A stretch of 64,000 bases of DNA from Alistipes sp. GTDB taxonomy: Bacteria; Bacteroidota; Bacteroidia; Bacteroidales; Rikenellaceae. The notes below the pieces were generated by a model. It was not told the DNA's origin. It saw only the letters and a program-made list of their open reading frames with translations, and made no database searches. Each line of letters opens with the position of its first letter. Position 1 is the first letter of the stretch. Below are positions 12,205-44,208 of this stretch, in pieces. The translations under genes were made by a program, and so were the position numbers. Location: contig JAZOPR010000014.1 of the NCBI GenBank assembly GCA_045655685.1, positions 75,471-139,470 of the forward strand, read 5' to 3'.

Positions 12205-12765
12205 TTACTCGCCAAATCGGAAACCGAGCGAGATGGTTATGCCACTGCCCGTCTGTGCCACTAAATTTTGGTTCATATAGGAGATTGCGGCGTGGTAGCG
12301 ACCAAACTCGACTCCGAGTATCGGCTCCAAATAGCCACTCACATCGATTTTGCCGTCACGATAGCGTTGCTGCTCCATTACCTCGAACGCTGCGCCCAAA
12401 CGCAAACCAACATAGGGCTGCACCTTGCTGTTGCGACCAAACAATCCGCGAATCTCGCCAAAAACGGGCACCGCAAGTTCGTGGCGACCCTGCTTGCCAA
12501 TGCCCCAAATCAGACCCGTACCAGCACCAACATAGAGGCACTCGCGGTGCAGATAACCCTGCGAAGTGACGGCGTGTAGGCACGCATCGCCGCTACTGCT
12601 AAACTCATCGACCGTCACTTGGATGTCCAGATAGCTACGGTAGCCACTCGCATAGATCGGTTTTTCATCTTGCAGATACTGCTCGATGTAGCCCTGCGCC
12701 GCGAGTGGCGAGAGCGCCGCCGTGCCAAAAACGAAGGCGACCAACAGAAGTAAAACTCGTTTCAT
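12205..12765 (-). CDS. Outer-membrane beta-barrel (porin-family) protein with signal peptide
   Basis: 186 aa with signal peptide MKRVLLLLVAFVFGTAALSPLAAQG, alternating hydrophobic beta-strand patterns, and a C-terminal SLGFRFGE. Confidence 0.6.
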   Translation of the reverse strand: MKRVLLLLVAFVFGTAALSPLAAQGYIEQYLQDEKPIYASGYRSYLDIQVTVDEFSSSGDACLHAVTSQGYLHRECLYVGAGTGLIWGIGKQGRHELAVPVFGEIRGLFGRNSKVQPYVGLRLGAAFEVMEQQRYRDGKIDVSGYLEPILGVEFGRYHAAISYMNQNLVAQTGSGITISLGFRFGE

Positions 12766-12882
12766 AAGCGGATCTCTTGAAAGTTTGTTTTTATGACTAT
12801 AACGCTCAGCGTTTCAATTTATTATGCAGTGAGATAATTTTTCGTTTTTTTAATTCAGAGCAAAGATCATCATCGGTGTTCG

Positions 12883-12953
12883 CACACTCGCGGGCTGGGG
12901 CGGTCGCCCGAAGGGCGAGCCCGCGAGTGTGTGGCGGTTTCATCGAAATCGCC
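12883..12953 (+). repeat. Nested GC-hairpin element, CACACTCGCGG class, with a degenerate mini-hairpin
   Basis: Arms CACACTCGCGGGCT and AGCCCGCGAGTGTG are perfect. The G-run GGGGCGG and inner hairpin TCGCCC-GAA-GGGCGA are present, followed by GGTTTCATCGAAATCGCC. Confidence 0.85.
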
Positions 12954-13042
12954 AACGAATAGGATTATCTACTTTTTTATTTTTATTAATTCTTTTTAAG
13001 CAAAGAAAAAATCTTGAATCTTGAATTGCGAATCGCCAACCC

Positions 13043-14581
13043 CTATCGTCCCCAGCTCTCGCGGTCGAGGCTGCGGTAGGTGATTGCCTCGGCGATGTGC
13101 GAGGGCGCGATCTGCTCCTCACCCGCCAGGTCGGCAATGGTGCGGGCAACCTTGATAATGCGGTCGTAGGCGCGCGCCGAGAGTTTCAGTCGCTCCATCG
13201 CGCGCTCCAACAGTGTGCGTGCCGCCGAGTCGAGCGGGCAGTACTCGCGCACCATTCGGCTGTTCATCATCGCGTTGGTATGCACACCCTCAATGCCCTC
13301 AAAACGAGCAGTTTGGATCTCTCGGGCGCGGATCACTCGCTCGCGGATCGTGGCGCTCGACTCCTCCACGCGGTCGCTCGAAAGCTCCTCCAACGCCACG
13401 GGCGTCACCTCGATATGGAGGTCGATACGGTCCATCAGCGGACCCGAAATGCGATTCATATAGCGGAACACGGCGCCCGCCGCGCAGGTGCACTCTTTGG
13501 TGGGGTGATTGTAGTAGCCGCAGGGGCAGGGATTCATCGACGCAATGAGCGAAAAATTGGCTGGATACTCGACGCTATATTTTGCGCGCGATACGGTAAT
13601 CGTTTTATCTTCAAGCGGTTGGCGCAACACTTCGAGCATATTGCGACCAAATTCGGGAAGCTCATCGAGGAACAAAATTCCGTTGTGGGCCAGCGAAACT
13701 TCACCCGGCTGTGGCGACGTGCCGCCACCGATCAGTGCCACCTGCGAGGTGAGGTGGTGGGGTGCGCGGAACGGACGGCGAGCCAGCAGCCCGCGTTCGC
13801 TACCCAGCTTGCCCGCAACAGAGTGAATCTTAGTGGTTTCGAGCGCCTCGCTGAGCGTCATCGGCGGCATAATCGAGGGCATTCGACGTGCCAACATCGT
13901 CTTGCCCGAGCCCGGAGCGCCGATCATCACCACGTTGTGACCACCCGCCGCCGCGATCTCCAAAGCGCGCTTGGCCTGTGCCTGACCCTTCACGTCGGCA
14001 AAGTCCTCTCCAAAGCGATTCGATTCATTATCAAATACTTGTGTTGTGTCGAGATGTGTCGGTTCGATCTGCTCCTCACCCGTCAGAAAGGCCACAACCT
14101 GCGCCAGCGACTGCACGCCAATCACCTCGGTGCCTTCGACCACAGCCGCCTCGCGAGCGTTCTCCTCGGGCAGGATCACACCACGCAGACCCTCCTGCGC
14201 CGCACGCACCGTGAGTGGCAGTGCGCCCTTGATCGGGCGGAGTGTGCCGTCGAGCGATAACTCGCCGAGAATCATATATTTATCAACAAGTTCGCTCTCG
14301 ATCTGACCCGATGCCGCCAGCAACGCCACCGCAATCGGCAGGTCGAACAACGAGCCCTCTTTACGCAGGTCGGCAGGCGCCAGATTGATCACAATCTTGC
14401 GGCCACTCATACGGAATCCGCTGTTCTCGAATGCCGCGCGGATACGCTCCTGCGACTCCTTCACAGCGTTGTCGGGCAGACCCACAAGGTACATTCCGAT
14501 ACCGCGCGTGATGTCCGCCTCGACGGTCACCATCACAGCGTCGATACCTACAACCGTACCTGCGTATGTCTTTACGAACAT
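13043..14581 (-). CDS. comM: YifB/ComM family Mg-chelatase-like AAA+ ATPase
   Basis: 512 aa with an N-terminal Lon-protease-like domain, Walker A GAPGSGKTMLARR, the ILFLDELPEF Walker B region, and a C-terminal ChlI-like helix bundle. Confidence 0.9.
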   Translation of the reverse strand: MFVKTYAGTVVGIDAVMVTVEADITRGIGMYLVGLPDNAVKESQERIRAAFENSGFRMSGRKIVINLAPADLRKEGSLFDLPIAVALLAASGQIESELVDKYMILGELSLDGTLRPIKGALPLTVRAAQEGLRGVILPEENAREAAVVEGTEVIGVQSLAQVVAFLTGEEQIEPTHLDTTQVFDNESNRFGEDFADVKGQAQAKRALEIAAAGGHNVVMIGAPGSGKTMLARRMPSIMPPMTLSEALETTKIHSVAGKLGSERGLLARRPFRAPHHLTSQVALIGGGTSPQPGEVSLAHNGILFLDELPEFGRNMLEVLRQPLEDKTITVSRAKYSVEYPANFSLIASMNPCPCGYYNHPTKECTCAAGAVFRYMNRISGPLMDRIDLHIEVTPVALEELSSDRVEESSATIRERVIRAREIQTARFEGIEGVHTNAMMNSRMVREYCPLDSAARTLLERAMERLKLSARAYDRIIKVARTIADLAGEEQIAPSHIAEAITYRSLDRESWGR

Positions 14582-14597
14582 ATTGATTTATTGCATT

Positions 14598-16247
14598 TTA
14601 GAATGGAGCATCGTCCATATTGGGAGCCTTCGGCTGTGCGCCGCCGATCGTGCCGCCCGTCATCGGAGCACCCGCAGGTGGCAGGTCAAATTCGCCACCA
14701 ATGCCCGACGCCAAACCGCCCGCCAGCGTGCCTCCGCCAAAGCCCGAACCATCAGCCAAACCGCCGCCCGCACCCGAGCCGCCAAAGCCACTTGATGCGC
14801 CCATTGCGCTATCGGTGTAGCTGAACGTTTCGTTGGCCGTGTCGGCATCGTAGTCGAGGAAGCGAGCCTGCTCCTTGCGGAAGCGCAGATTGACCGTGCC
14901 GACCGAGCCGTTACGGTGCTTGGCCAGAATGAACTCGGCCATACCTGCGGTCGATTGACCATTCTCGTCCTCGGTCATACCGTAGTACTCGGGACGATGG
15001 ATAAATGCCACGATATCAGCGTCCTGCTCGATTGCACCCGACTCACGAAGGTCGCTCAGCTGAGGGCGTTTGTTACCGCCACGAAGCTCCGTCTGACGGC
15101 TCAACTGCGACAGCGCAATGATCGGCACGTTCAGCTCCTTGGCGATCGCCTTCAACGTACGCGAGATGGTTGCAACCTCCTGCTCACGATTGCCGCCCTG
15201 ACCCGACTGACCCGTGGTCATCAGCTGCAAGTAGTCGATCACGATCAACTGAATGTTGTTGTGTATCTTCAAACGGCGCGCCTTCGAGCGGAACTCATAG
15301 ACCGACAACGCCGGAGTGTCATCAATGTAGAGCGGAGCCGAACCGAGCGGCTTGGTCGAAACCTCCAAATGGCGCCACTGATCGGGCGTCAGCTTACCAC
15401 TCTTGACCGCAGTGCCGTCCAGTCCCGACTCGGCGATAATCAATCGCTTCATCAGCTGTTCGGCGCTCATTTCGAGCGAGAAGAAGGCTACGGGACGCTC
15501 GTGATCGACCGTGATGTTGCGTGCCATCGTCAGCACAAATGCGGTCTTACCCATCGCGGGTCGCGCCGCCAGAATCACCAGATCCGAGGGCTGCCAACCG
15601 AGCGTTTCGCGGTCGATACCCACGAATCCCGACGGCACACCACTGAACGAATCCTTGTTCTTGCCGGCCTCTTCGATCGACTTCAAAGTCTTGGCTAACA
15701 CACTCTTAGAGTCCTGCACCGAGCGCTTGACGTGACCCTCGGCCACGCGGAAGATCTCCTGCTCGGCAAAACCGATCAACTCGGTCACGTCCTTCGACTC
15801 GTCGTAGGCCTTACGCTGGATCTCGGTCGATGAGCGGATCAACTCGCGCTGGACATATTTCTGCGCGATGATCTTGGCGTGGAACTCGACGTGAGCCGCC
15901 GAACCCACCTTCTGGGTCAGCTGGGCAAGGAACGGAGCACCACCCACCTCTTTGAGCGTGCCTTCGGATTTCAGACGCTCGGTAACGGTGTAGAGGTCAA
16001 TGGGTTTCAACTCGTGCGAGAGGTCCTCGATAGCCTTATAGACCGTACGGTGAACGGGGTTGTAGAAGGCCTCGGGAGTGATGAACTCCTGCACGGTTAC
16101 GATACTATCCTTGTCGAGCATCAGCGCACCGAGCACCGCCTCTTCAAGCTCGACAGCCTGAGGGGGCACAGTTCCGGTGATCTCGGTCAAAGCCTCAAAC
16201 GCCTCGCGGTTCTTCTCCGCGGAGGATTTATACTCTTTTTTAGCCAT
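14598..16247 (-). CDS. dnaB: Replicative DNA helicase DnaB with a Gly-rich C-terminal extension of about 75 aa
   Basis: Contains PPQAVELEEAVLGALM at the N-terminal domain, Walker A ARPAMGKTAF, VIDYLQLM and SQLSR. I prefer the start at MAKKEYKS (16247) over 16298. Confidence 0.9.
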   Translation of the reverse strand: MAKKEYKSSAEKNREAFEALTEITGTVPPQAVELEEAVLGALMLDKDSIVTVQEFITPEAFYNPVHRTVYKAIEDLSHELKPIDLYTVTERLKSEGTLKEVGGAPFLAQLTQKVGSAAHVEFHAKIIAQKYVQRELIRSSTEIQRKAYDESKDVTELIGFAEQEIFRVAEGHVKRSVQDSKSVLAKTLKSIEEAGKNKDSFSGVPSGFVGIDRETLGWQPSDLVILAARPAMGKTAFVLTMARNITVDHERPVAFFSLEMSAEQLMKRLIIAESGLDGTAVKSGKLTPDQWRHLEVSTKPLGSAPLYIDDTPALSVYEFRSKARRLKIHNNIQLIVIDYLQLMTTGQSGQGGNREQEVATISRTLKAIAKELNVPIIALSQLSRQTELRGGNKRPQLSDLRESGAIEQDADIVAFIHRPEYYGMTEDENGQSTAGMAEFILAKHRNGSVGTVNLRFRKEQARFLDYDADTANETFSYTDSAMGASSGFGGSGAGGGLADGSGFGGGTLAGGLASGIGGEFDLPPAGAPMTGGTIGGAQPKAPNMDDAPF

Positions 16248-16351
16248 AATTTTCGAAGTGTTGGGGTGTAAAGGTATGAAAAACGCGGCGAAATTCAAAA
16301 TTCAAGATGCGAAATTACCAAATTATTTACTCGGCTCTCGACAAAATCACA

Positions 16352-16396: not shown

Positions 16397-16400
16397 CGCA

Positions 16401-16515
16401 CGCCATAGGGGCGGGTTTTACTGTTTTCGGTTGTAGCAGATTGGAATCTGTTTGCAAAATCCCAAATCTTCTCGCAACTCACCCCCCAATAACAACCATA
16501 TGGGCGGGTTTTGTT
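16401..16515 (+). repeat. 115-bp element, copy 1, bounded by GGGCGGGTTTT modules
   Basis: Differs from the reverse complement of 30485-30600 by two substitutions and one 1-nt indel, aligned by hand. Confidence 0.85.
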
Positions 16516-16537
16516 GTTTTTTCGCTTCGACTTAATC

Positions 16538-16610
16538 CAAGTTCGGTGGCTGGGGGGGCGTGCGACAAAAGTCGCACGAGCCACCGAACTTGACGATTTC
16601 TCCGAAATCG
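16538..16610 (+). repeat. Nested GC-hairpin element, CAAGTTCGG class, plus mini-hairpin CGATTTCTCCGAAATCG
   Basis: Arms CAAGTTCGGTGGCT and AGCCACCGAACTTG are perfect. Inner hairpin GTGCGAC-AAAA-GTCGCAC. Confidence 0.85.
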
Positions 16611-16684
16611 ATTTACTCTCGCTGACCCGCCGATGATGACGAAATTCCGAGAATTTCGATTTATTGTTTTTATTAAAGCAAAGG

Positions 16685-16717
16685 CTAATTTTGAATTTAG
16701 CTTTTTGAATTGTGAAT
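16685..16717 (+). repeat. 33-nt AT-rich TTGAAT module, copy 3
   Basis: CTAATTTTGAATTTAGCTTTTTGAATTGTGAAT. Confidence 0.8.
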
Positions 16718-16718
16718 T

Positions 16719-16738
16719 TTATTTGCCTATCTTTGCAA
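16719..16738 (+). repeat. 20-bp direct repeat, left copy, containing -33 TTTG and the -7 box TATCTTTG (16728-16735)
   Basis: TTATTTGCCTATCTTTGCAA is identical to 17841-17860. It lies 16 nt upstream of the acyltransferase ATG at 16754. Confidence 0.85.
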
Positions 16739-16753
16739 ATCAATCAATTATTT

Positions 16754-17821
16754 ATGAGCAGTGTGGAGTTGAAATCGGGTTCTATTTCTTCGCTTTATGT
16801 GCTGAAAGCGATTTGTGCATTTTTGGTAGTTGTTATCCACTTCCCAATGAAATATGGATACTACTTTTTTCCGATAGTGCGAATTGCGGTACCCTGTTTC
16901 TTTATGATTTCGGGATATTTTCTCTACAACGATAATCGAGAGAAGATGCTCTCTAACCTCAAACGTGCATTTTGTAAAACGTTGCAGGTAACGATATGGG
17001 CATACGTATTTTATCTACTTGTTGCAATCTTTAATTCTGTTACATTTGGATCATCATTGAATATTGTATCTCAAACGTGGTTGTACTATATAATTGCAGG
17101 TCCGCTAATTGGTAGCAGTAGCCATTTGTGGTATCTTATTGCATATCTCGAAGCATTATTAGTGGTGCTTATCTGCACAAAATCCAACACAATCAAGATA
17201 TTATGGTGGCTTATCCCGATAGGTCTTATTGCGAACTTATTGCTCGGTAAATATGGATTTTTATTGCCTCCTTTTGATTTTTCATCTGTAGGCATTCCGA
17301 ACTATATAATGGCCCGAAACGTCTTTACAATCGGCATTCCTGCATTTGCTTCTGGACTATTGTTACGTAAAAATATCGCCCAAATTAATGAAAGGGTTAA
17401 TAATAAAAAAGCTTGGATCACAGCCATTTCTTTCTTAATACTAGCAGTTGTCGAATTTGTAATTTTACATGTGAAATTTGAAAATAAATATATGGCTGAT
17501 ATATCCCTTTTCACAATGCCGCTTGCGATTAGTTTTATTCTGCTCTGTCTAAAATACCCCGATTTTGGAAACAAATCATACATAACAACAATAGGACATC
17601 GATACTCCTCGGACATATATATTTACCACATGTTTGGCGGTAATTACTTAGTTGGCTTCATTGGAGTTGTAATATACAAAATTACAGGAGTTGAGAGTTT
17701 GGCACTATACAATGCTCCGACGGTATTCTTAACCACTTTGGTTTTTGTGATTGTATTGCAGAAATCTTTGGCCTGGGTGAAATCAAAGATTACTCAAAAA
17801 AAGCAACCTGTAACAAACTAA
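16754..17821 (+). CDS. Acyltransferase family 3 (integral-membrane O-acyltransferase), low-GC
   Basis: About 355 aa from MSSVELKSG with roughly 10 predicted hydrophobic helices. The N-terminal LYVLKAICAFLVVVIHFP and RIAVPCFFMISGYF motifs are typical of the family. The sampled line 16741-16800 has 21/60 GC. Confidence 0.75.
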   Translation: MSSVELKSGSISSLYVLKAICAFLVVVIHFPMKYGYYFFPIVRIAVPCFFMISGYFLYNDNREKMLSNLKRAFCKTLQVTIWAYVFYLLVAIFNSVTFGSSLNIVSQTWLYYIIAGPLIGSSSHLWYLIAYLEALLVVLICTKSNTIKILWWLIPIGLIANLLLGKYGFLLPPFDFSSVGIPNYIMARNVFTIGIPAFASGLLLRKNIAQINERVNNKKAWITAISFLILAVVEFVILHVKFENKYMADISLFTMPLAISFILLCLKYPDFGNKSYITTIGHRYSSDIYIYHMFGGNYLVGFIGVVIYKITGVESLALYNAPTVFLTTLVFVIVLQKSLAWVKSKITQKKQPVTN

Positions 17822-17840
17822 TTTTATTTCTTCGAAAAAC

Positions 17841-17860
17841 TTATTTGCCTATCTTTGCAA
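17841..17860 (+). repeat. 20-bp direct repeat, right copy, containing the -7 box TATCTTTG (17850-17857) for the moxR operon
   Basis: TTATTTGCCTATCTTTGCAA is identical to 16719-16738. Confidence 0.85.
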
Positions 17861-17963
17861 TAATTTTGGGTCGCGCGCGTTTATCTTATTTAGGGGTGCC
17901 AACCCAACCGAAACCCTCAGGAAATTATTCCGATAAAAAACGATAAAAATATAAATAAAACCT

Positions 17964-18962
17964 ATGAGCGAAGTAATTAACATCAAGGAACTTAATGAGC
18001 GTATCGAGCGCGAAAGCCTCTTTGTCGATACGCTGAACGCCGAAATGAGCAAGGTCATCGTCGGTCAAAAACATCTGATCGACACCCTGATGATCGGTCT
18101 GCTGTCGAACGGTCATATCCTCTTGGAGGGTGTCCCCGGTTTGGCTAAGACATTGGCTATCACCACGCTGGCTAAGGCTGTCGATGCACGTTTCAGCCGT
18201 ATCCAGTTTACGCCCGACCTGCTGCCCGCCGACCTGATCGGTACGCTGATCTACTCGCAGAAGAACGAGGATTTCGCCGTGCGTCGCGGTCCGATCTTCG
18301 CCAACTTCGTGCTGGCCGATGAGATCAACCGTTCGCCGGCAAAGGTGCAGTCGGCACTGCTCGAAGCGATGCAGGAGCGTCAGGTGACCATCGGTGACGA
18401 GACCTATGCTCTGCCCCAGCCCTTCCTTGTGATGGCAACGCAAAACCCTCTGGAACAGGAGGGTACCTATCCTCTGCCCGAGGCGCAGGTGGACCGTTTT
18501 ATGCTCAAAGCCAAGATCTCGTACCCCAACAAGCAGGAGGAGCGCGACATCGTGCGTATGAATCTGTCGGGTGCGGGTATGCCCGAGCCGAGCAAGGTGA
18601 TCACGCCCGAGGATATCGTCAAGGCGCGCAAGGTGGTTGAGGACGTCTATATGGACGAGAAGATCGAGAAGTATATCATCGACATCATCTTCGCAACGCG
18701 CGAGCCTCAGGAGTACAACTTGCAGAAGTTGCAGTCGATGATCGGCTACGGTGCCTCGCCCCGTGCGAGCATCTCGCTGGCGAAGGCTGCACGCAGCTAC
18801 GCATTCATCAAGCGTCGCGGCTATGTGATCCCCGAGGATGTACGTGCGGTGTGCCACGATGTGCTGCGCCACCGTATCGGTCTGACCTACGAGGCTGAGG
18901 CCGAGAATGTTACAACCGAAGAGATCATTACCGATATTCTGAATAACGTCGTAGTACCCTAA
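17964..18962 (+). CDS. MoxR-family AAA+ ATPase
   Basis: 332 aa with Walker A LLEGVPGLAKT, Walker B LADEINR, and a VMATQNPLEQEGTYPLPEAQVDRF segment. Confidence 0.9.
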   Translation: MSEVINIKELNERIERESLFVDTLNAEMSKVIVGQKHLIDTLMIGLLSNGHILLEGVPGLAKTLAITTLAKAVDARFSRIQFTPDLLPADLIGTLIYSQKNEDFAVRRGPIFANFVLADEINRSPAKVQSALLEAMQERQVTIGDETYALPQPFLVMATQNPLEQEGTYPLPEAQVDRFMLKAKISYPNKQEERDIVRMNLSGAGMPEPSKVITPEDIVKARKVVEDVYMDEKIEKYIIDIIFATREPQEYNLQKLQSMIGYGASPRASISLAKAARSYAFIKRRGYVIPEDVRAVCHDVLRHRIGLTYEAEAENVTTEEIITDILNNVVVP

Positions 18963-38475: not shown

Positions 38476-38511
38476 GGGTACATATATTAATATTGGTGAA
38501 AATCTAAGATT

Positions 38512-40884
38512 ATGTCGAAAACATACACCTATCCCGATCCTAATGACAGAATTACCGCGACCCTGATTGGTCAGTTTCAGCACAATGATGACTATTGGGC
38601 TCGAAGTGAGCAGGCAGTTTTTCGCAATATCCATCACACGATATCGCAAATCAATCTGACCAACTACTCGTTGCTCGATGTGGGTTGTGGCGAAGGTCGA
38701 TTGTTTGTTGATTTCGTCAACGGAGCCTCCAAAATCGTCGGTCTGGAGCCCGATGCGGAGCGCTTTGCGGTTGCCCAAAAGTATGTTAATGATCATAATT
38801 TCAATGATAAGATCCTGTTGCTGAATTCGTCATTGGAGAACAGTCACCTTCACGACGAATTCGACATCGTTCTGTCGAGCCATATCATTCAACATATTCC
38901 GACCTGGTCGCTCCGATCGCACCTCGAGCAACTATGCCGACATACCCGCGATAACGGTCTGCTGATCATCAATACGAACATCTCGCACGAAGAGGACGAA
39001 TACTTTGTCAAGGATACGTTAGAGGGCGATCAGTTTGCCGAAACCAAAATCACCAAAGAGGAGTTCGACCAATTGACCCACAGTGGCGCTGGCTCGTTGC
39101 CGATACATATGTTCAATGGCGAGAAGTTGAAGGAGGAAGTTGAAGCGTATGGTTTCCAACTCTTGTCAAAAAGGCTTTTCCACGTTGATAAAGAGATGCA
39201 GGAGCAGTATGGCGACAAAGCCGACGCAGAGGTTAATGATAACCCCGAACTTGCTGCCAAATATGGTCGTGATGTCTGTTTTATCTTCCAGAAACAGCGC
39301 CTAATCAAAACCATACGCAAGGGTGCTCTGGCTGAATTTTGCGCGTTCAATATCAATATTAATGGCCAATCGGACAAGCTGAAAACATTATTGAACGGTC
39401 TGAGAAGTAGCGTTGCAGATATTTTTGTTACTTCGCCATTTTGCACCACGATGGATTCAGACAAAGCCCAAACGTGTGTTTGTGGCGACGTCGCAGATGA
39501 ATTTTGCAAAACCGGACAGCGAATCAATAGCAGTTTCAGATACCCAATCGGTACGACCTATTTCAACTTCTTCAGCAAGAAGATAATCCCGTTGAAAGTC
39601 TCGATCACTTTCTTCCCGTTCAGAAATGTCGGCATTGTCTGTTTCAATGTGATAATCAATGACTTGCCTATTGATGAAGTCATCGTACTGAAACAATTTT
39701 TCAACGGTTGCGCCAACCTCGAATCGACCGGACAAACCACAACTGAGCTTGCGCGATACTTTCAACCGTCAGATACAAACGCAGCCGCCGAGAAGATCGC
39801 GGGCAAACCCTTCTGGGATCTATGCAACTATCTGATCCGATGCATAACGAATCAGGCAAAAGCCCAAATTGCCAAAGATTTTTCGTGGCAGACACAGGGC
39901 AAATATTTGATCGAAGAGAACGATTCGCTCGAAACCGTTATTGACAATTTCGACCAGCTACATACGAGTCGCGGCTTTATTTATCCCACATTAGAGATCA
40001 AGGAGACCGACCTCGAATTCAATAAACAGGATGCATTTACGTGGTCGTTGCACAACTGTCGCTCGCTCTATGGTTTGCTCGTTGGTGATGAGGGTTATAA
40101 ATATGTACCACGCAGTCTGGCGCAGAAACGACTGTCGCAATATCAGTGGGGAACACGCAAGTTTGTCAGTATCTTCGCCTATGGCAACAACACTATTCTG
40201 CTCAATTTCAAGAGTAGCTCGAAGATCGGCAAGGAGTATATCGAGTATGAAAGAATGTGGTCGAAGAACTACTATTCGGCCGATCGCAATAAGTACTTCG
40301 AGATGTGTCCTTGCATTGCGGGCATTGATCACGGACTGTATCGAATAATCGAGCGCAATATTGTTATCTTCTACGAGAATAACTACATTACTCAGGTAGA
40401 TCAATCGACCGCAATCAATATCAACAAGAAGCGTAATAAGATTATTCTCTTCCTGCAAAAGACCGAATCCTCAAAAGATGAGATTAACGATTTGTTCTAT
40501 ATTATCTCACAGGCGTCGGGTACAGGCAATATCATCGACGCAACAAAACAACGCCTTGCGCTTCGATCTGAGGAGAAGAATCTGATCAATCAACGCCAGA
40601 ACAATATTACGATTTTCATTCTGACTGTAACATCGACCCTCCTGGGCTTCATCGCCATCAGCCAGGGATCCTACTTCTTTGATTTCATTGATGGTTGGAT
40701 CGAGAAGGATCCTGGAACACTTCTCATCCGTGCTATGATGATAATTTTTACTGCCTTTGTACTATTCATCGTCATTAGCAGTTGCAAGGTGCGTAATGCT
40801 AAACGTGCTTGGTACAGGTTGTTGCATTCGAAGCCTTGCCTATATATAGCATCTTGTTATCGTAAACTTGTAGACAAGAAATAA
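38512..40884 (+). CDS. Low-GC 790-aa fusion protein: class I SAM-dependent methyltransferase domain (about aa 1-265), an unknown middle domain, and a C-terminal two-TM CorA/DUF155-like module
   Basis: SAM motif I LLDVGCGEGRL, post-I IVGLEPD, FDIVLSSHIIQHIP. Middle-region motif ITFFPFRNVGIVCFNV. C-terminal sequence NNITIFILTVTSTLLGFIAISQGSYFF, a loop, then LLIRAMMIIFTAFVLFIVISS and a basic tail KVRNAKRAW. Sampled lines have 28/60 and 20/60 GC, against 37/60 in the upstream gene. Confidence 0.8.
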   Translation: MSKTYTYPDPNDRITATLIGQFQHNDDYWARSEQAVFRNIHHTISQINLTNYSLLDVGCGEGRLFVDFVNGASKIVGLEPDAERFAVAQKYVNDHNFNDKILLLNSSLENSHLHDEFDIVLSSHIIQHIPTWSLRSHLEQLCRHTRDNGLLIINTNISHEEDEYFVKDTLEGDQFAETKITKEEFDQLTHSGAGSLPIHMFNGEKLKEEVEAYGFQLLSKRLFHVDKEMQEQYGDKADAEVNDNPELAAKYGRDVCFIFQKQRLIKTIRKGALAEFCAFNININGQSDKLKTLLNGLRSSVADIFVTSPFCTTMDSDKAQTCVCGDVADEFCKTGQRINSSFRYPIGTTYFNFFSKKIIPLKVSITFFPFRNVGIVCFNVIINDLPIDEVIVLKQFFNGCANLESTGQTTTELARYFQPSDTNAAAEKIAGKPFWDLCNYLIRCITNQAKAQIAKDFSWQTQGKYLIEENDSLETVIDNFDQLHTSRGFIYPTLEIKETDLEFNKQDAFTWSLHNCRSLYGLLVGDEGYKYVPRSLAQKRLSQYQWGTRKFVSIFAYGNNTILLNFKSSSKIGKEYIEYERMWSKNYYSADRNKYFEMCPCIAGIDHGLYRIIERNIVIFYENNYITQVDQSTAININKKRNKIILFLQKTESSKDEINDLFYIISQASGTGNIIDATKQRLALRSEEKNLINQRQNNITIFILTVTSTLLGFIAISQGSYFFDFIDGWIEKDPGTLLIRAMMIIFTAFVLFIVISSCKVRNAKRAWYRLLHSKPCLYIASCYRKLVDKK

Positions 40885-40896
40885 TCCTGCTTATAC

Positions 40897-40935
40897 AAAA
40901 AAATCCCCGAAACGTGGTTGTTTCGGGGATTTTTT
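40897..40935. terminator. Bidirectional rho-independent terminator shared by the fusion gene (+) and tRNA-Thr (-)
   Basis: AAAAAAATCCCCGAAAC-GTGGTT-GTTTCGGGGATTTTTT, with a stem of at least 11 bp and an A-run and T-run on either side. Confidence 0.8.
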
Positions 40936-40936
40936 G

Positions 40937-41009
40937 AGCCGCAAACGAGACTTGAACTCGTGACCTCTTCATTACGAGTGAAACGCTCTACCAACTGAGC
41001 TATTGCGGC
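40937..41009 (-). tRNA. tRNA-Thr (anticodon CGT), CCA not encoded
   Basis: The reverse complement reads GCCGCAATAGCTCAGTTGGTAGAGCGTTTCACTCGTAATGAAGAGGTCACGAGTTCAAGTCTCGTTTGCGGCT. It has a 7-bp acceptor stem, anticodon loop CTCGTAA and T-loop GTTCAAG. Confidence 0.9.
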
Positions 41010-41417
41010 ATCACTTCAAAGGTCTTGATCCTTTTGCGGTGCAAATATCCGAAAAAAATTTCGAATATTCCAACTTTCAAACCAAATTATATCATTTTAT
41101 CGCAAATTTTGTCTGAGCCTCGCCCGCAACCAGCCCCGTCGCACACCTCGCCTCGCACCTCGTATCCACTCTCGCCGCACGCCTCGCAACCCACCGCACC
41201 AAGTATGCATAAGCATACGATGCGGGTAGTTTTGTTCATAAAATATTACAGATATATGATATTATTCTCATTGCCGAATCGCCCGTTAATTCGCAACATC
41301 CGATGGTAAAGTTACGAATTTCGAATCGCAATTCCAACCTCTCGGGGCGATTCTGACGCAAAAGAGTGAACAATCTCCGATTTTTATTCGTATCTTCGCA
41401 TAAAATTACTTTCGCCT

Positions 41418-42842: not shown

Positions 42843-43521
42843 ACCTACGGCCGACCAGACCTTCCGTTTGGTAGCCGATCCCGCCGACCGAAAATGGGAC
42901 TTTGTTGAGATTCTGGCGCGCTCGCGCCGTGAGGAGCAGCAGGGCAACATCGAGGCTGCCTGCAACACCCGCTATCACGCCGTACAGCGCCTCGAAGAGC
43001 TCCTGCCCGACTCGGGCGAGGTGATCTTCGAGTGGGAGGACGACAACTCGCAGGCGGCATTGGAGGTTGTCTATTGTTCGGCCATCGACCACTTCCTGAT
43101 TGGCGATTGGGAGATGGCAGCGGCGATATTCGAGATGTTGCTCGAACTCGATCCCGAGGATCATCTCGAAGCGACTACTCGCCTGGCTTACACCTACATA
43201 GCAATGGAGGAGTACGATTCGTATGACGATATCGCCGACGACCTGAACGACAAATCGGTCGACAGGGCGATACTCTCGATGTGGAGTGCGTTTCGCCGTA
43301 CGGGCACTCTGCCTGTGGGCGAGGTGCGTAATTTCGGCAAGCGATTCGCGGCCTACTACAACGAGTTCTGTGCCGACGAGCACCCCATTGACGAGGGTTA
43401 CTTGGCTGATATCGAGAGTGAACGCCCCTCGGTGGCGGCTCAGGCGCGCGAGTTGTGGTTGCAGACCGAGCACCTCTGGGCGCAGTTCGGAGGCTTCATC
43501 GAGGCGCTGCGAAAGGCTTAA
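42823..43521 (+). CDS. Hypothetical helical-repeat (TPR-like) acidic protein
   Basis: 232 aa with host-like GC. Overlaps the cstA stop by 20 nt. No family motif recognised by eye. Confidence 0.45.
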   Translation: MIKPQLRPTADQTFRLVADPADRKWDFVEILARSRREEQQGNIEAACNTRYHAVQRLEELLPDSGEVIFEWEDDNSQAALEVVYCSAIDHFLIGDWEMAAAIFEMLLELDPEDHLEATTRLAYTYIAMEEYDSYDDIADDLNDKSVDRAILSMWSAFRRTGTLPVGEVRNFGKRFAAYYNEFCADEHPIDEGYLADIESERPSVAAQARELWLQTEHLWAQFGGFIEALRKA

Positions 43522-43716
43522 GACGATAATTGAACTCAGTCAGATTTGGCAAAGTGCAGTTTTCGTCAACAAATCGCATCTTTGCGAGCGTGGGGCGACT
43601 TTTAGACCGTCAATGACAAGGGCGAAGAGAGCAAAAGTCAAATAACAAAAGAACAATACGATGCCACATTAGATGAAATACTAAAAAAAGATAAAAGTGG
43701 TTTGAATAAAAGAACA

Positions 43717-44208
43717 ATGAGAAAGGTTTATCAAACATTAAAGTACATTATACCACTGCTTTTAATAGGTTATTTCTTCGTTGACCGTTATACCAATCCT
43801 TATCAACGTATCTATCGATATATTGAGCGGCATTGTAGTTTTGGCGTTGTGGACACCTGCTACATTGATATGGAAAAAGCACTTGGAGTAAAGTATGATC
43901 TTATCTACCATTTTACGGGCAATTTGCACCCCTATCCTGAGTTAATTGCCCAAGACCTTCGTTTGCCATATTCGGGGCGAGGTCTTGGAGATAATGAGGA
44001 ACGAATTATCTTGGTTCGAGATGACAAAGTGGTGTATGAGAGGACCTTCGAGCCACCTTACTATTATGGGTGGGGATTTGGATGGGATGCAATCGAGAAT
44101 TTCCCATTCCGAGAGAAAATATTTACTGTAACCATACAATACGGCAAGTTCGACAAAGAGAAACAAATGTATGAATATCGATACGTATTATTACCAAAAC
44201 GTCCGTGA
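43717..44208 (+). CDS. Low-GC hypothetical membrane-anchored protein
   Basis: 163 aa from the ATG at 43717; the ORF-track start at 43702 is a TTG. N-terminal TM helix YIIPLLLIGYFFV. Y/W-rich. The sampled line 43741-43800 has 20/60 GC. Its stop overlaps the GTG of the next gene (GTGA). Confidence 0.5.
   Translation: MRKVYQTLKYIIPLLLIGYFFVDRYTNPYQRIYRYIERHCSFGVVDTCYIDMEKALGVKYDLIYHFTGNLHPYPELIAQDLRLPYSGRGLGDNEERIILVRDDKVVYERTFEPPYYYGWGFGWDAIENFPFREKIFTVTIQYGKFDKEKQMYEYRYVLLPKRP

Follow-up and report, generated by a model that had tools for sequence, protein, structure and literature searches.

A single gene in the 64,000-nucleotide stretch of Alistipes sp. DNA analysed here (the window) joins an intact, genuine class I S-adenosylmethionine (SAM)-dependent methyltransferase to a C-terminal module that, judged by sequence comparison, is a real, previously undescribed membrane-anchored protein family, which we call the 'GDEG' module family. 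The methyltransferase belongs to one dedicated clade, the only recurrent partner of the module, which lies fused to it or directly upstream in about half of the loci that could be judged and occurs in those two arrangements only. The gene (38512..40884, + strand) is a complete, uninterrupted open reading frame (ORF) with an ATG start, encoding 790 amino acids followed by a stop codon in the ORF list and translation. The start is supported because all full-length homologues (10/10) share that methionine and carry the conserved YxYPDP motif directly after it. The ORF is not a product of chance, since 11 homologues retain the same two-part architecture and the ratio of nonsynonymous to synonymous substitution rates (dN/dS) is 0.19 against the orthologue in metagenome locus L002 and 0.08 against that in locus L006 ('uncultured Alistipes sp. 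HGM05551'). Over its entire length, this gene included, the aligned region of the window shares 91.6% DNA identity with L002; the window is also collinear with L006, in which the fusion protein is 76% identical. The fusion gene is under purifying selection and evolves somewhat faster than its neighbours (about twice as fast), for which dN/dS against L002 is 0.06–0.10. A fusion created by sequencing artefact was rejected, as the fusion occurs in 12 representative clusters and 12 metagenome loci. With a guanine–cytosine (GC) content of 0.446, and 0.54 at third codon positions (GC3), against GC 0.57–0.59 and GC3 0.74–0.78 in five neighbouring genes and a whole-window mean GC of 0.555, the gene also has the low GC that a preliminary description of this DNA had reported.

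Residues 266–790, which the preliminary description could largely not assign to a family, matched nothing in Pfam, NCBIfam, PADLOC or PHROGs. As a single sequence they gave no usable PDB sequence match, and a profile built from a 55-sequence module alignment (A2; used alongside another alignment, A1, and one of standalone modules only, A3) gave none at E ≤ 10. A word-indexed search of 5.8 billion proteins with these residues returned 12 clusters, of which the full-length ones all carry a methyltransferase head, and the 55-sequence profile found nothing in that index beyond the same 12 close homologues, whose alignment shows no weaker conservation in the tail than in the head. The wider family emerged from phmmer over 1.84 billion cluster representatives, which found 168 relatives, 82 of them at E ≤ 1e-10, with E-values against standalone members down to 7e-74. 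Among the 150 listed representatives of these 168, 138 are standalone proteins (median 429 amino acids) and 12 have a methyltransferase head; their phmmer matches centre on module positions ~250–450, and the module profile built from A2 matches 150/150 of them. In no relative scanned is the module annotated by Pfam or NCBIfam, and public names, where present, are generic ('class I SAM-dependent methyltransferase', 'alpha-amylase family glycosyl hydrolase'). Neither the module nor a methyltransferase/CorA-like fusion is described in the literature searched, including Aravind-lab conflict-system work; likewise, the libraries and literature contained no characterized protein with this architecture, as the preliminary description had supposed. 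Some 525 conserved, selected residues are left in this way without a family, a solved fold match or a literature, yet with a confident model and a clear signature. Anaerobes of the gut commonly carry the family, which is known from Rikenellaceae and other Bacteroidales and has relatives in metagenomes of the rumen and the human gut. It merits at least a database entry, which would end the naming of its members only as methyltransferases or alpha-amylase family glycosyl hydrolases.

The signature is centred on a family-wide conserved cytoplasmic core at residues 487–670 (39970..40521, + strand), delimited by A2 conservation, by phmmer and by a predicted local distance difference test (pLDDT) score mostly >90. 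Mean column identity in A2 is only 21%, yet E495, D526, E527 and R549 (full-protein numbering) are invariant, and Y520, G521, G528, W546, F551, N565, Y576, Y595, F596, H607, G608, E614, R641, E657 and N698 are nearly so. In summary form, family members read E(I/L)...(L/I)YG(L/I)(L/I)xGDEG(W/Y)xxVP...W(G/S)(S/T)RxF...hairpin...LN, followed by helices, a stalk with a conserved Asn and a C-terminal transmembrane (TM) helix. The window protein has every invariant and nearly invariant position, in the form LYGLLxGDEGYxYVP...WGTRxF...hairpin...LN...PCIAGIDHG. Upstream of the core, residues 266–400 (39307..39711, + strand) form a clade-specific alpha+beta sub-domain, recognized from model secondary structure and close-clade conservation. 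It contains the Cys cluster that had been noted earlier and is indeed present and conserved in the close clade (C311/C322/C324/C332, nucleotides 39442–39507), with C311, C322 and C324 invariant and C332 nearly so; the cluster is retained in the nearest ~15 relatives and absent from the common ~410-residue forms.

The association with the methyltransferase was examined in a metagenome scan with the standalone-module alignment (A3) as bait, which recovered 39 loci, 29 of them with a judgeable upstream side. By a local hidden Markov model of the head, 12 of the 29 are fused, 3 have a same-clade methyltransferase directly upstream and 14 have none. The covalent joining of a methyltransferase to an uncharacterized membrane-anchored module, the central claim of the preliminary description, thus reflects a real coupling in 15/29 judgeable loci. 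The two genes can be separate and tightly packed: in L020 they overlap by 4 bp, and the standalone relative P0044 has a separate 257-residue methyltransferase 32 bp upstream. Fused and separate heads share the motifs Y.YPD..D.(L/I)T, YW..SE, LD.GCG.GRL, EPD..R, D.VL(S/C)SH..QHI and LP.(H/R).F. Across the metagenome loci, no other neighbour of the module recurs except among near-identical loci.

A second enzyme is attached to the module in another lineage. Parabacteroides johnsonii P0176 (938 amino acids, from a cluster of 234 members) goes by the annotation of alpha-amylase family glycosyl hydrolase. It spans the module completely (profile positions 5–416 of 420) and continues with a tight TM hairpin, beyond which lies a glycoside hydrolase family 13 (GH13) domain. 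In P0176 (with P0112), the module and TM hairpin make up the first 537 residues, and the protein is species-wide in P. johnsonii. Its GH13 domain is nearest to cyclomaltodextrinase and maltodextrin glucosidase and lies on the same membrane side as the module, and the methyltransferase and GH13 domains sit at opposite module ends. A methyltransferase partner that may be fused, split or absent, a GH13 alternative, and a CorA-like stalk and first TM helix (TM1) lacking GMN (described below) are the clues that narrow the search for a function of the family.

In five independent human-gut contigs (L049–L053), a standalone module is split at the same point into overlapping ORFs of ~320 + 161 amino acids (for example, L049 3650–5013). 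The gene could have become a pseudogene or fixed a frameshift there, or the frameshift could be programmed. Downstream, the five contigs also have a two-component system and an ABC transporter in common.

The head (residues 1–265; 38512..39306, + strand) was identified as a class I SAM-dependent methyltransferase by Pfam matches above gathering score, a confident model and Foldseek, in agreement with the assignment made earlier by eye for residues 1 to about 265. Its motifs are YTYPDPNDRIT, YWARSE, LLDVGCGEGRL, LEPD, FDIVLSSHIIQHIP and LPIHMF. Residues 29–219 exceed the Pfam gathering thresholds of Methyltransf_23 (48.4 bits, cut-off 27), Methyltransf_25, _11, _12 and _31, and CMAS. Motif I, LLDVGCGEGRL (D56, G58, G60, G62), and IVGLEPD (E79, D81) are invariant in 11 homologues, and motif I and the acidic end of strand 2 are also kept in distant fused and separate methyltransferase partners. 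The full-length AlphaFold2 model has pLDDT 85–90 over the head (residues 30–260), and a Foldseek search of the PDB with this model found class I methyltransferases only (E ~1e-12, probability 1.00), which identifies the Rossmann-like, seven-stranded fold of that class. By sequence, the nearest solved relative is cyclopropane-fatty-acyl-phospholipid synthase 5z9o (E = 2e-7), followed by farnesyl pyrophosphate (FPP)/terpene and natural-product methyltransferases. CMAS, UbiG and TehB models are recurrent weak matches of the heads, and a CMAS Pfam match occurs in every fused member. Cyclopropane-fatty-acyl-phospholipid synthase and other lipid or terpene methyltransferases work at the membrane surface, and the similarity may hint at a lipid or hydrophobic substrate. 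Unlike these enzymes, however, the head has N-terminal YxYPD and SSHxxQHI motifs that are clade-specific.

The module was modelled from the 55-sequence alignment with a mean pLDDT of 85.3 and a predicted template modelling score (pTM) of 0.83. In order, the model comprises the alpha+beta sub-domain, helices, a second alpha/beta region with the invariant residues, a helical bundle and then the C-terminal part, in which a 47-residue stalk helix (671–717) leads straight into TM1 and is followed by another long helix (TM2) and a terminal one. Hydropathy places the two C-terminal hydrophobic helices at ~698–719 and ~735–760. We accordingly annotate the stalk helix continuing into TM1 (~698–719) at residues 671–719 (40522..40668, + strand; from the model, hydropathy, hhalign and periodicity), a poorly conserved TM2 at residues 735–760 (40714..40791, + strand; from hydropathy) and a basic cytoplasmic tail (KVRNAKRAW...) at residues 761–790 (40792..40881, + strand; from sequence). 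There is essentially no extracytoplasmic loop, and most members of the wider family (~410 amino acids) end after a single TM helix, without TM2. Conservation along TM1 is periodic, peaking at 100 degrees in the close clade (index 6.4, permutation p < 0.001) and persisting family-wide (index 3.7, p = 0.004), with a conserved stripe formed by N697/N698, L704/T705, S708, L711/G712 and A715. TM2 has no such periodicity (index 0.27, p = 0.9). One conserved face on TM1 and none on TM2 suggests an oligomeric bundle, and in our reading the stalk and TM1 together probably act as an inner element for helix packing, like their CorA counterparts. A Foldseek search of PDB and BFVD with the confident module model found nothing at E ≤ 1e-3; the best PDB match is YwmB (2fpn; E = 0.034, 134 columns), followed by low-probability TBP-like and Bet v1-like alpha+beta folds. 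We take these matches, to alpha+beta folds the size of one domain, as fold resemblance at the sub-domain level only.

The preliminary description had seen the layout of CorA-superfamily channels in this C terminus. The layout itself holds for the window clade, with two helices, a long stalk and a basic tail, but the family identity is not supported: GxN is absent, and neither Pfam nor Foldseek places the protein with CorA. Of all Pfam families, only CorA (PF01544) is matched at E ≤ 1 by two or more of the 55 members; 6/55 match it, with a best E of 4.4e-4 and every match below the gathering score. In P0021, for example, the match scores 16 bits against a cut-off of 27 and covers profile positions 165–242 of 292, that is, the stalk into TM1. 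The window protein itself has no PF01544 match at E ≤ 1. Profile comparison was made with genuine CorAs from E. coli (1), plasmids (6) and an Alistipes genome (1). With hhalign, the family profile gave 1.3% against the single E. coli CorA, 8% against an 8-sequence CorA profile and 29.5% against a 9-sequence CorA profile (P = 5.7e-4, 93 columns, stalk and TM1 only), compared with 0.2% (P = 0.27) for a reversed-profile control. The register was constant in three comparisons, with the family Asn at TM1 entry aligned to CorA EQN and (L/I)T aligned to CorA K.(L/F)(T/S). The alignment stops where CorA has YG-MN. The genuine CorAs in the comparison all carry YGMN, whereas the GxN (GMN) motif is absent from the outer end of TM1 here: the window protein has AISQGSYFF, and no position is conserved family-wide. 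Chains of CorA, ZntB or Mrs2 were not among the 50 best Foldseek PDB matches, all of which have E ≥ 0.034. The window protein therefore fails the tests that define CorA membership (Pfam score and GxN); similarity to CorA is detectable only in the stalk and TM1, and the module may be a very remote relative. This weak and local resemblance is all that connects the family to known biology. Compared with CorA, ZntB and Mrs2 (PF01544, '2-TM-GxN'), it has in common a cytoplasmic domain, a very long helix that leads from there into TM1, a conserved Asn at TM1 entry followed in the same register by (L/I)T, and conservation of TM1 but not TM2, to which the window clade adds a TM hairpin and basic tail. 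It differs in having no GxN/GMN, no MPEL loop and no match at the Pfam gathering score, in a cytoplasmic domain that is not recognizably CorA-like by sequence or Foldseek, in the single TM of most members, and in its dedicated methyltransferase partner.

A resemblance to DUF155/RMND1 (PF02582), also noticed earlier in a strand motif, fared similarly. The hairpin does exist, and the close clade conserves it (ITFFPFRNVGIVCFNV, RNVGIVCFN, with R371, N372, G374, I375, C377 and N379), and by eye the two families share a beta-hairpin of the form G-x-x-V/I-x-(F/W)-N and a C-terminal membrane helix. No search recovered the DUF155 identity, however: the window protein has no PF02582 match at E ≤ 0.01, and DUF155 is not one of the Pfam families that recur among the 55 members at E ≤ 1. 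Moreover, the hairpin lies in the clade-specific sub-domain (~266–400), which is common to only the nearest ~15 relatives and missing from most of the family.

These features can be accommodated, tentatively, by a pair in which an enzyme and its membrane partner handle a small molecule at the membrane, the module being oligomeric with a cytoplasmic pocket. The module would oligomerize through its stalk and TM1 in the manner of CorA, of which it is possibly a very distant relative, and its conserved cytoplasmic residues would form the predicted pocket for a small molecule or metal. The methyltransferase would act on the same molecule at the inner membrane face, so that the pair would constitute a methylate-and-pass or membrane-localized modification system for a compound that is small and probably hydrophobic or membrane-associated. 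In another lineage, the GH13 glycosidase would replace the methyltransferase on the same module. The function would be an accessory metabolic or detoxification function, not that of a phage-defence effector. We favour this reading, as a possibility still short of probable, on the combination of dedicated partnership, enzyme swapping, the TM1 stripe, the CorA register and the substrate hint; in addition, the fusion gene persists in Alistipes lineages between which the protein has drifted to 76% identity. If the module is indeed a membrane partner for small-molecule methylation, abundant gut bacteria would possess an unrecognized accessory metabolic or detoxification activity.

The closest functional analogy to this pair may be TehB–TehA, a SAM-dependent methyltransferase and a membrane channel that act in tellurite and selenite resistance, with TehA being a 10-TM SLAC1-type channel; lipid methyltransferases that work at the membrane surface may be a further functional analogue. 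Both systems would pair a class I methyltransferase with a membrane protein in an accessory function, and TehB models recur among the weak matches of the heads. The analogy does not extend to the parts: TehA is unrelated to the module, the TehB matches are far below cut-off and reflect the shared Rossmann core, and there is no evidence of a metalloid substrate for the window's pair.

Several observations weigh against the small-molecule reading. Its whole mechanistic step is one that we infer. The hint of a lipid or hydrophobic substrate comes from weak similarity within the SAM-binding core, to which the solved-structure sequence matches of the head are confined (residues 26–154 for 5z9o). 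About half of the module genes have no nearby methyltransferase, so the module must also work alone. Finally, a role in conflict would better fit the low GC, tRNA adjacency, patchy distribution and roughly twofold neighbour evolution rate of the gene, as well as the three relatives that reside in TIR/STAND, caspase and kinase/FHA arrays.

The alternative that survives best, although it appears unlikely, is that the module is a passive, oligomerizing scaffold that tethers cytoplasmic enzymes to the inner face of the membrane, with no pocket or pore of its own. The attachment of two unrelated enzymes at opposite ends of the module is what such a scaffold would predict, as is a minimal membrane part with an unconserved TM2 and next to nothing outside the membrane. 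A passive tether, however, would have no use for ~200 strongly conserved core residues, E, DE, R, H and E being invariant among them, in a family with 21% mean column identity, nor for a conserved face on TM1, and 138/150 of the listed representatives have no fused enzyme to tether.

Quite unlikely, in our estimation, is a metabolite-gated, CorA-like oligomeric pore, closed by default, whose metabolite the attached enzyme makes or destroys, and whose opening depolarizes or kills the cell, which would make the protein a self-contained abortive-infection or conflict effector. The preliminary description had proposed a SAM-gated defence effector of this kind, and its background on SAM-AMP and CRISPR-associated CorA proved correct (PMC10600005). 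The CRISPR type III CorA effector is activated by SAM-AMP (Chi et al. 2023, PMC10600005), which binds via the N-terminal soluble domain. What defines CRISPR-associated CorA is a type III locus with Cas10 and a SAM-AMP-degrading NrN, DEDD or SAM-AMP lyase; the effector is tied, and sometimes fused, to this ligand-modifying enzyme (PMC10600005). The GDEG module resembles that effector in a large non-CorA cytoplasmic domain with a C-terminal region remotely similar to CorA, in its linked or fused small-molecule-modifying enzyme, in its occurrence in Bacteroidales and in the involvement of SAM chemistry. Also in line with a gated pore are the similarity of stalk and TM1 to CorA, the polar stripe that is conserved there (N697/N698, T705, S708, G712), and the accessory, low-GC, tRNA-adjacent character of the gene at a variable junction. 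The partner enzymes differ, however: there, a nuclease or lyase breaks down a SAM conjugate, whereas the methyltransferase here takes SAM as its cofactor. Cas10, NrN, DEDD and SAM-AMP lyase were absent from the window and every annotated homologue context. The lack of GxN, the single TM of most members and the missing CorA among the 50 best Foldseek PDB matches further count against a pore.

Genomic context would suit such an effector in three distant relatives but not in the clade to which the window belongs, for which the defence proposal found no contextual support. No Cas, CBASS, cyclase, nuclease or toxin–antitoxin partner was found around the gene in the window clade, and no sensor or immunity partner at the locus. 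In all five Rikenellaceae contexts the neighbours are housekeeping genes, with no defence genes among them. In PADLOC-DB v2 the sole match of the fusion is mad2, to methyltransferase residues 54–163, with none for the module; a scan of viral contigs found no copies, PHROGs no module match, and Rfam no riboswitch beside any member. Conflict-type neighbours occur in 3 of ~35 distinct contexts, never in the window's clade. In one of these, the fused distant relative P0175 (L068 7001–9268) sits in the middle of a co-directional TIR/nSTAND1 array; in the others, P0044 adjoins two caspase-like proteins with WG repeats, and P0025 lies among Ser/Thr kinase, FHA, PP2C and FGE-sulfatase genes. At the domain level only, PADLOC matched neighbours of P0175, P0044 and P0025 to a ThsB-like TIR, SAVED-TIR, a DarG-like Macro domain, caspase and a PD-T4-6/mad6 kinase. 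The order of genes in L068 (1–15000) is TIR-dynamin, Macro-TIR, TIR-WD40, a 65-residue ORF, the fusion, TIR, nSTAND1-Sel1, DUF805 and Peptidase_M48/TerB, and the array looks like an uncharacterized conflict island with an embedded family member. The species-wide GH13 fusion of the same module in P. johnsonii would be odd for a toxin, and stable retention under purifying selection also speaks against a killing function. The conflict-system reading is kept alive, at low probability, by the accessory, low-GC, tRNA-adjacent nature of the gene and by the three distant relatives in arrays. Less probable again is the broader proposition that the module founds a new effector class at the membrane, remotely descended from CorA, in which a small metabolite opens an oligomeric pore and the coupled methyltransferase, or the GH13 enzyme in another lineage, makes or removes that metabolite. 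This self-contained parallel to the CorA–NrN pair of SAM-AMP signalling would spread as a mobile single-gene islet and would serve in some lineages as the membrane-killing arm of TIR/STAND/caspase conflict arrays. If a gated pore were nevertheless correct, the idea of CorA-type effectors would extend beyond CRISPR.

It is improbable that the methyltransferase modifies the module itself, for example on conserved Glu or Asp residues, and thereby sets the state of a membrane sensor or channel, by analogy with CheR, which methylates chemoreceptors. The pairing of enzyme and module is obligatorily close, up to fusion, and the module core does contain invariant acidic residues. No similarity of the head to CheR or other protein carboxyl methyltransferases was seen, however, and its matches to protein arginine methyltransferases (PRMTs) are weak and limited to the SAM-binding core; half of the modules have no enzyme, and self-modification is hard to square with the GH13 fusion. 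Very improbable is a divergent divalent-cation transporter of the CorA family with an extra domain, since against the weak Pfam matches (6/55), the hhalign value of 29.5% and conserved acidic residues that could act as a cation sensor stand the missing GMN, the sub-gathering scores with none for the window protein, the inability of one-TM members to build a CorA-type pore, and the canonical 316-residue CorA with YGMNF that a related Alistipes genome already has.

In Alistipes, the fusion gene by itself forms a low-GC accessory islet, situated beside a tRNA at a junction of variable content. Its upstream neighbours are HPPK, Big_5, an outer-membrane protein (OMP), RbfA, a LolE-like permease and DUF4296, and CstA follows downstream. 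In four other Alistipes lineages, in which the DUF4296 orthologue is 86, 64, 61 and 40% identical, the upstream block is kept but the slot differs, containing a canonical CorA with a menaquinone-biosynthesis gene, PGI, an unrelated 1.9-kb insert or an amidohydrolase, and the fusion is not encoded within ~6 kb either side. Its absence from the junction in these lineages indicates an accessory islet and not a syntenic core gene; patchiness at the junction is accompanied by low GC everywhere the gene occurs, with no sign of the host-like composition and synteny of a core gene. Two of the slots are L069 6969–7919, where the canonical CorA (316 amino acids, YGMNF) lies on the opposite strand, and L071 6858–8773, where the unrelated 1.9-kb insert has 37% GC and no called gene.

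Among species-representative genomes, searched by way of the methyltransferase motifs (A1), a search that also returned unrelated methyltransferases, the full fusion turned up in four genomes, all of them Rikenellaceae (Alistipes, Tidjanibacter and two metagenome-assembled genomes), and the non-Alistipes lineages carry it in different housekeeping contexts. In every locus compared, the GC content of the fusion gene is 5–12 points under that of its flanks. As the deficit exists in all lineages, low GC is a persistent property of the gene and not a sign of recent transfer; recent horizontal transfer was rejected as its cause, the deficit being present even in 76%-identical orthologues.

The low-GC tract extends beyond the stop codon of the fusion to ~41400, as a non-coding islet tail (40885..41417; GC 0.44, delimited by composition) that ends at the start of CstA. 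Within it, 15 nt past the stop, lies a bidirectional intrinsic-terminator hairpin (40899..40934; no strand assigned) with a 16-bp stem and A-run and T-run flanks, predicted by RNA folding at −26.2 kcal/mol (z = −4.9, with 0/200 shuffles as stable). It is followed by a tRNA-Thr(CGT) gene (40936..41009, − strand; ARAGORN and Rfam), the 3′ end of which faces the 3′ end of the ORF. The same tRNA-Thr(CGT) adjoins the orthologues in L002 and L006 and is a possible old integration site; in Tidjanibacter (L007) and in L066, ~285 bp separate the gene from the 3′ end of a tRNA-Ser(CGA), and the methyltransferase–module pair of L020 has a tRNA 660 bp upstream. Upstream, 36 nt (38476–38511) with no terminator separate the DUF4296 stop from the fusion start, so the fusion may be co-transcribed with the LolE-like and DUF4296 genes; the output of a sigma-70 scan carries no information on promoters in Bacteroidota.

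Between the tRNA-Thr and CstA, L002 has an insertion of ~700 bp (12746–13446) that the window, at ~41239–41253, lacks, so that the junction is variable even between genomes that are 91.6% identical. The insertion encodes a 197-residue minus-strand gene with no Pfam match. The window contains two further low-GC regions. A second islet (16400–18000; GC 0.34–0.40), located between DnaB (14598–16298, − strand) and a MoxR-type AAA ATPase (17964–18962), carries an ORF for an Acyl_transf_3 membrane acyltransferase (16712–17821, + strand). A third patch (43500–44200; GC 0.40) carries a 168-residue ORF with no Pfam match (43702–44208, + strand), and the alignment between the window and L002 is broken at window positions 43521–44208.

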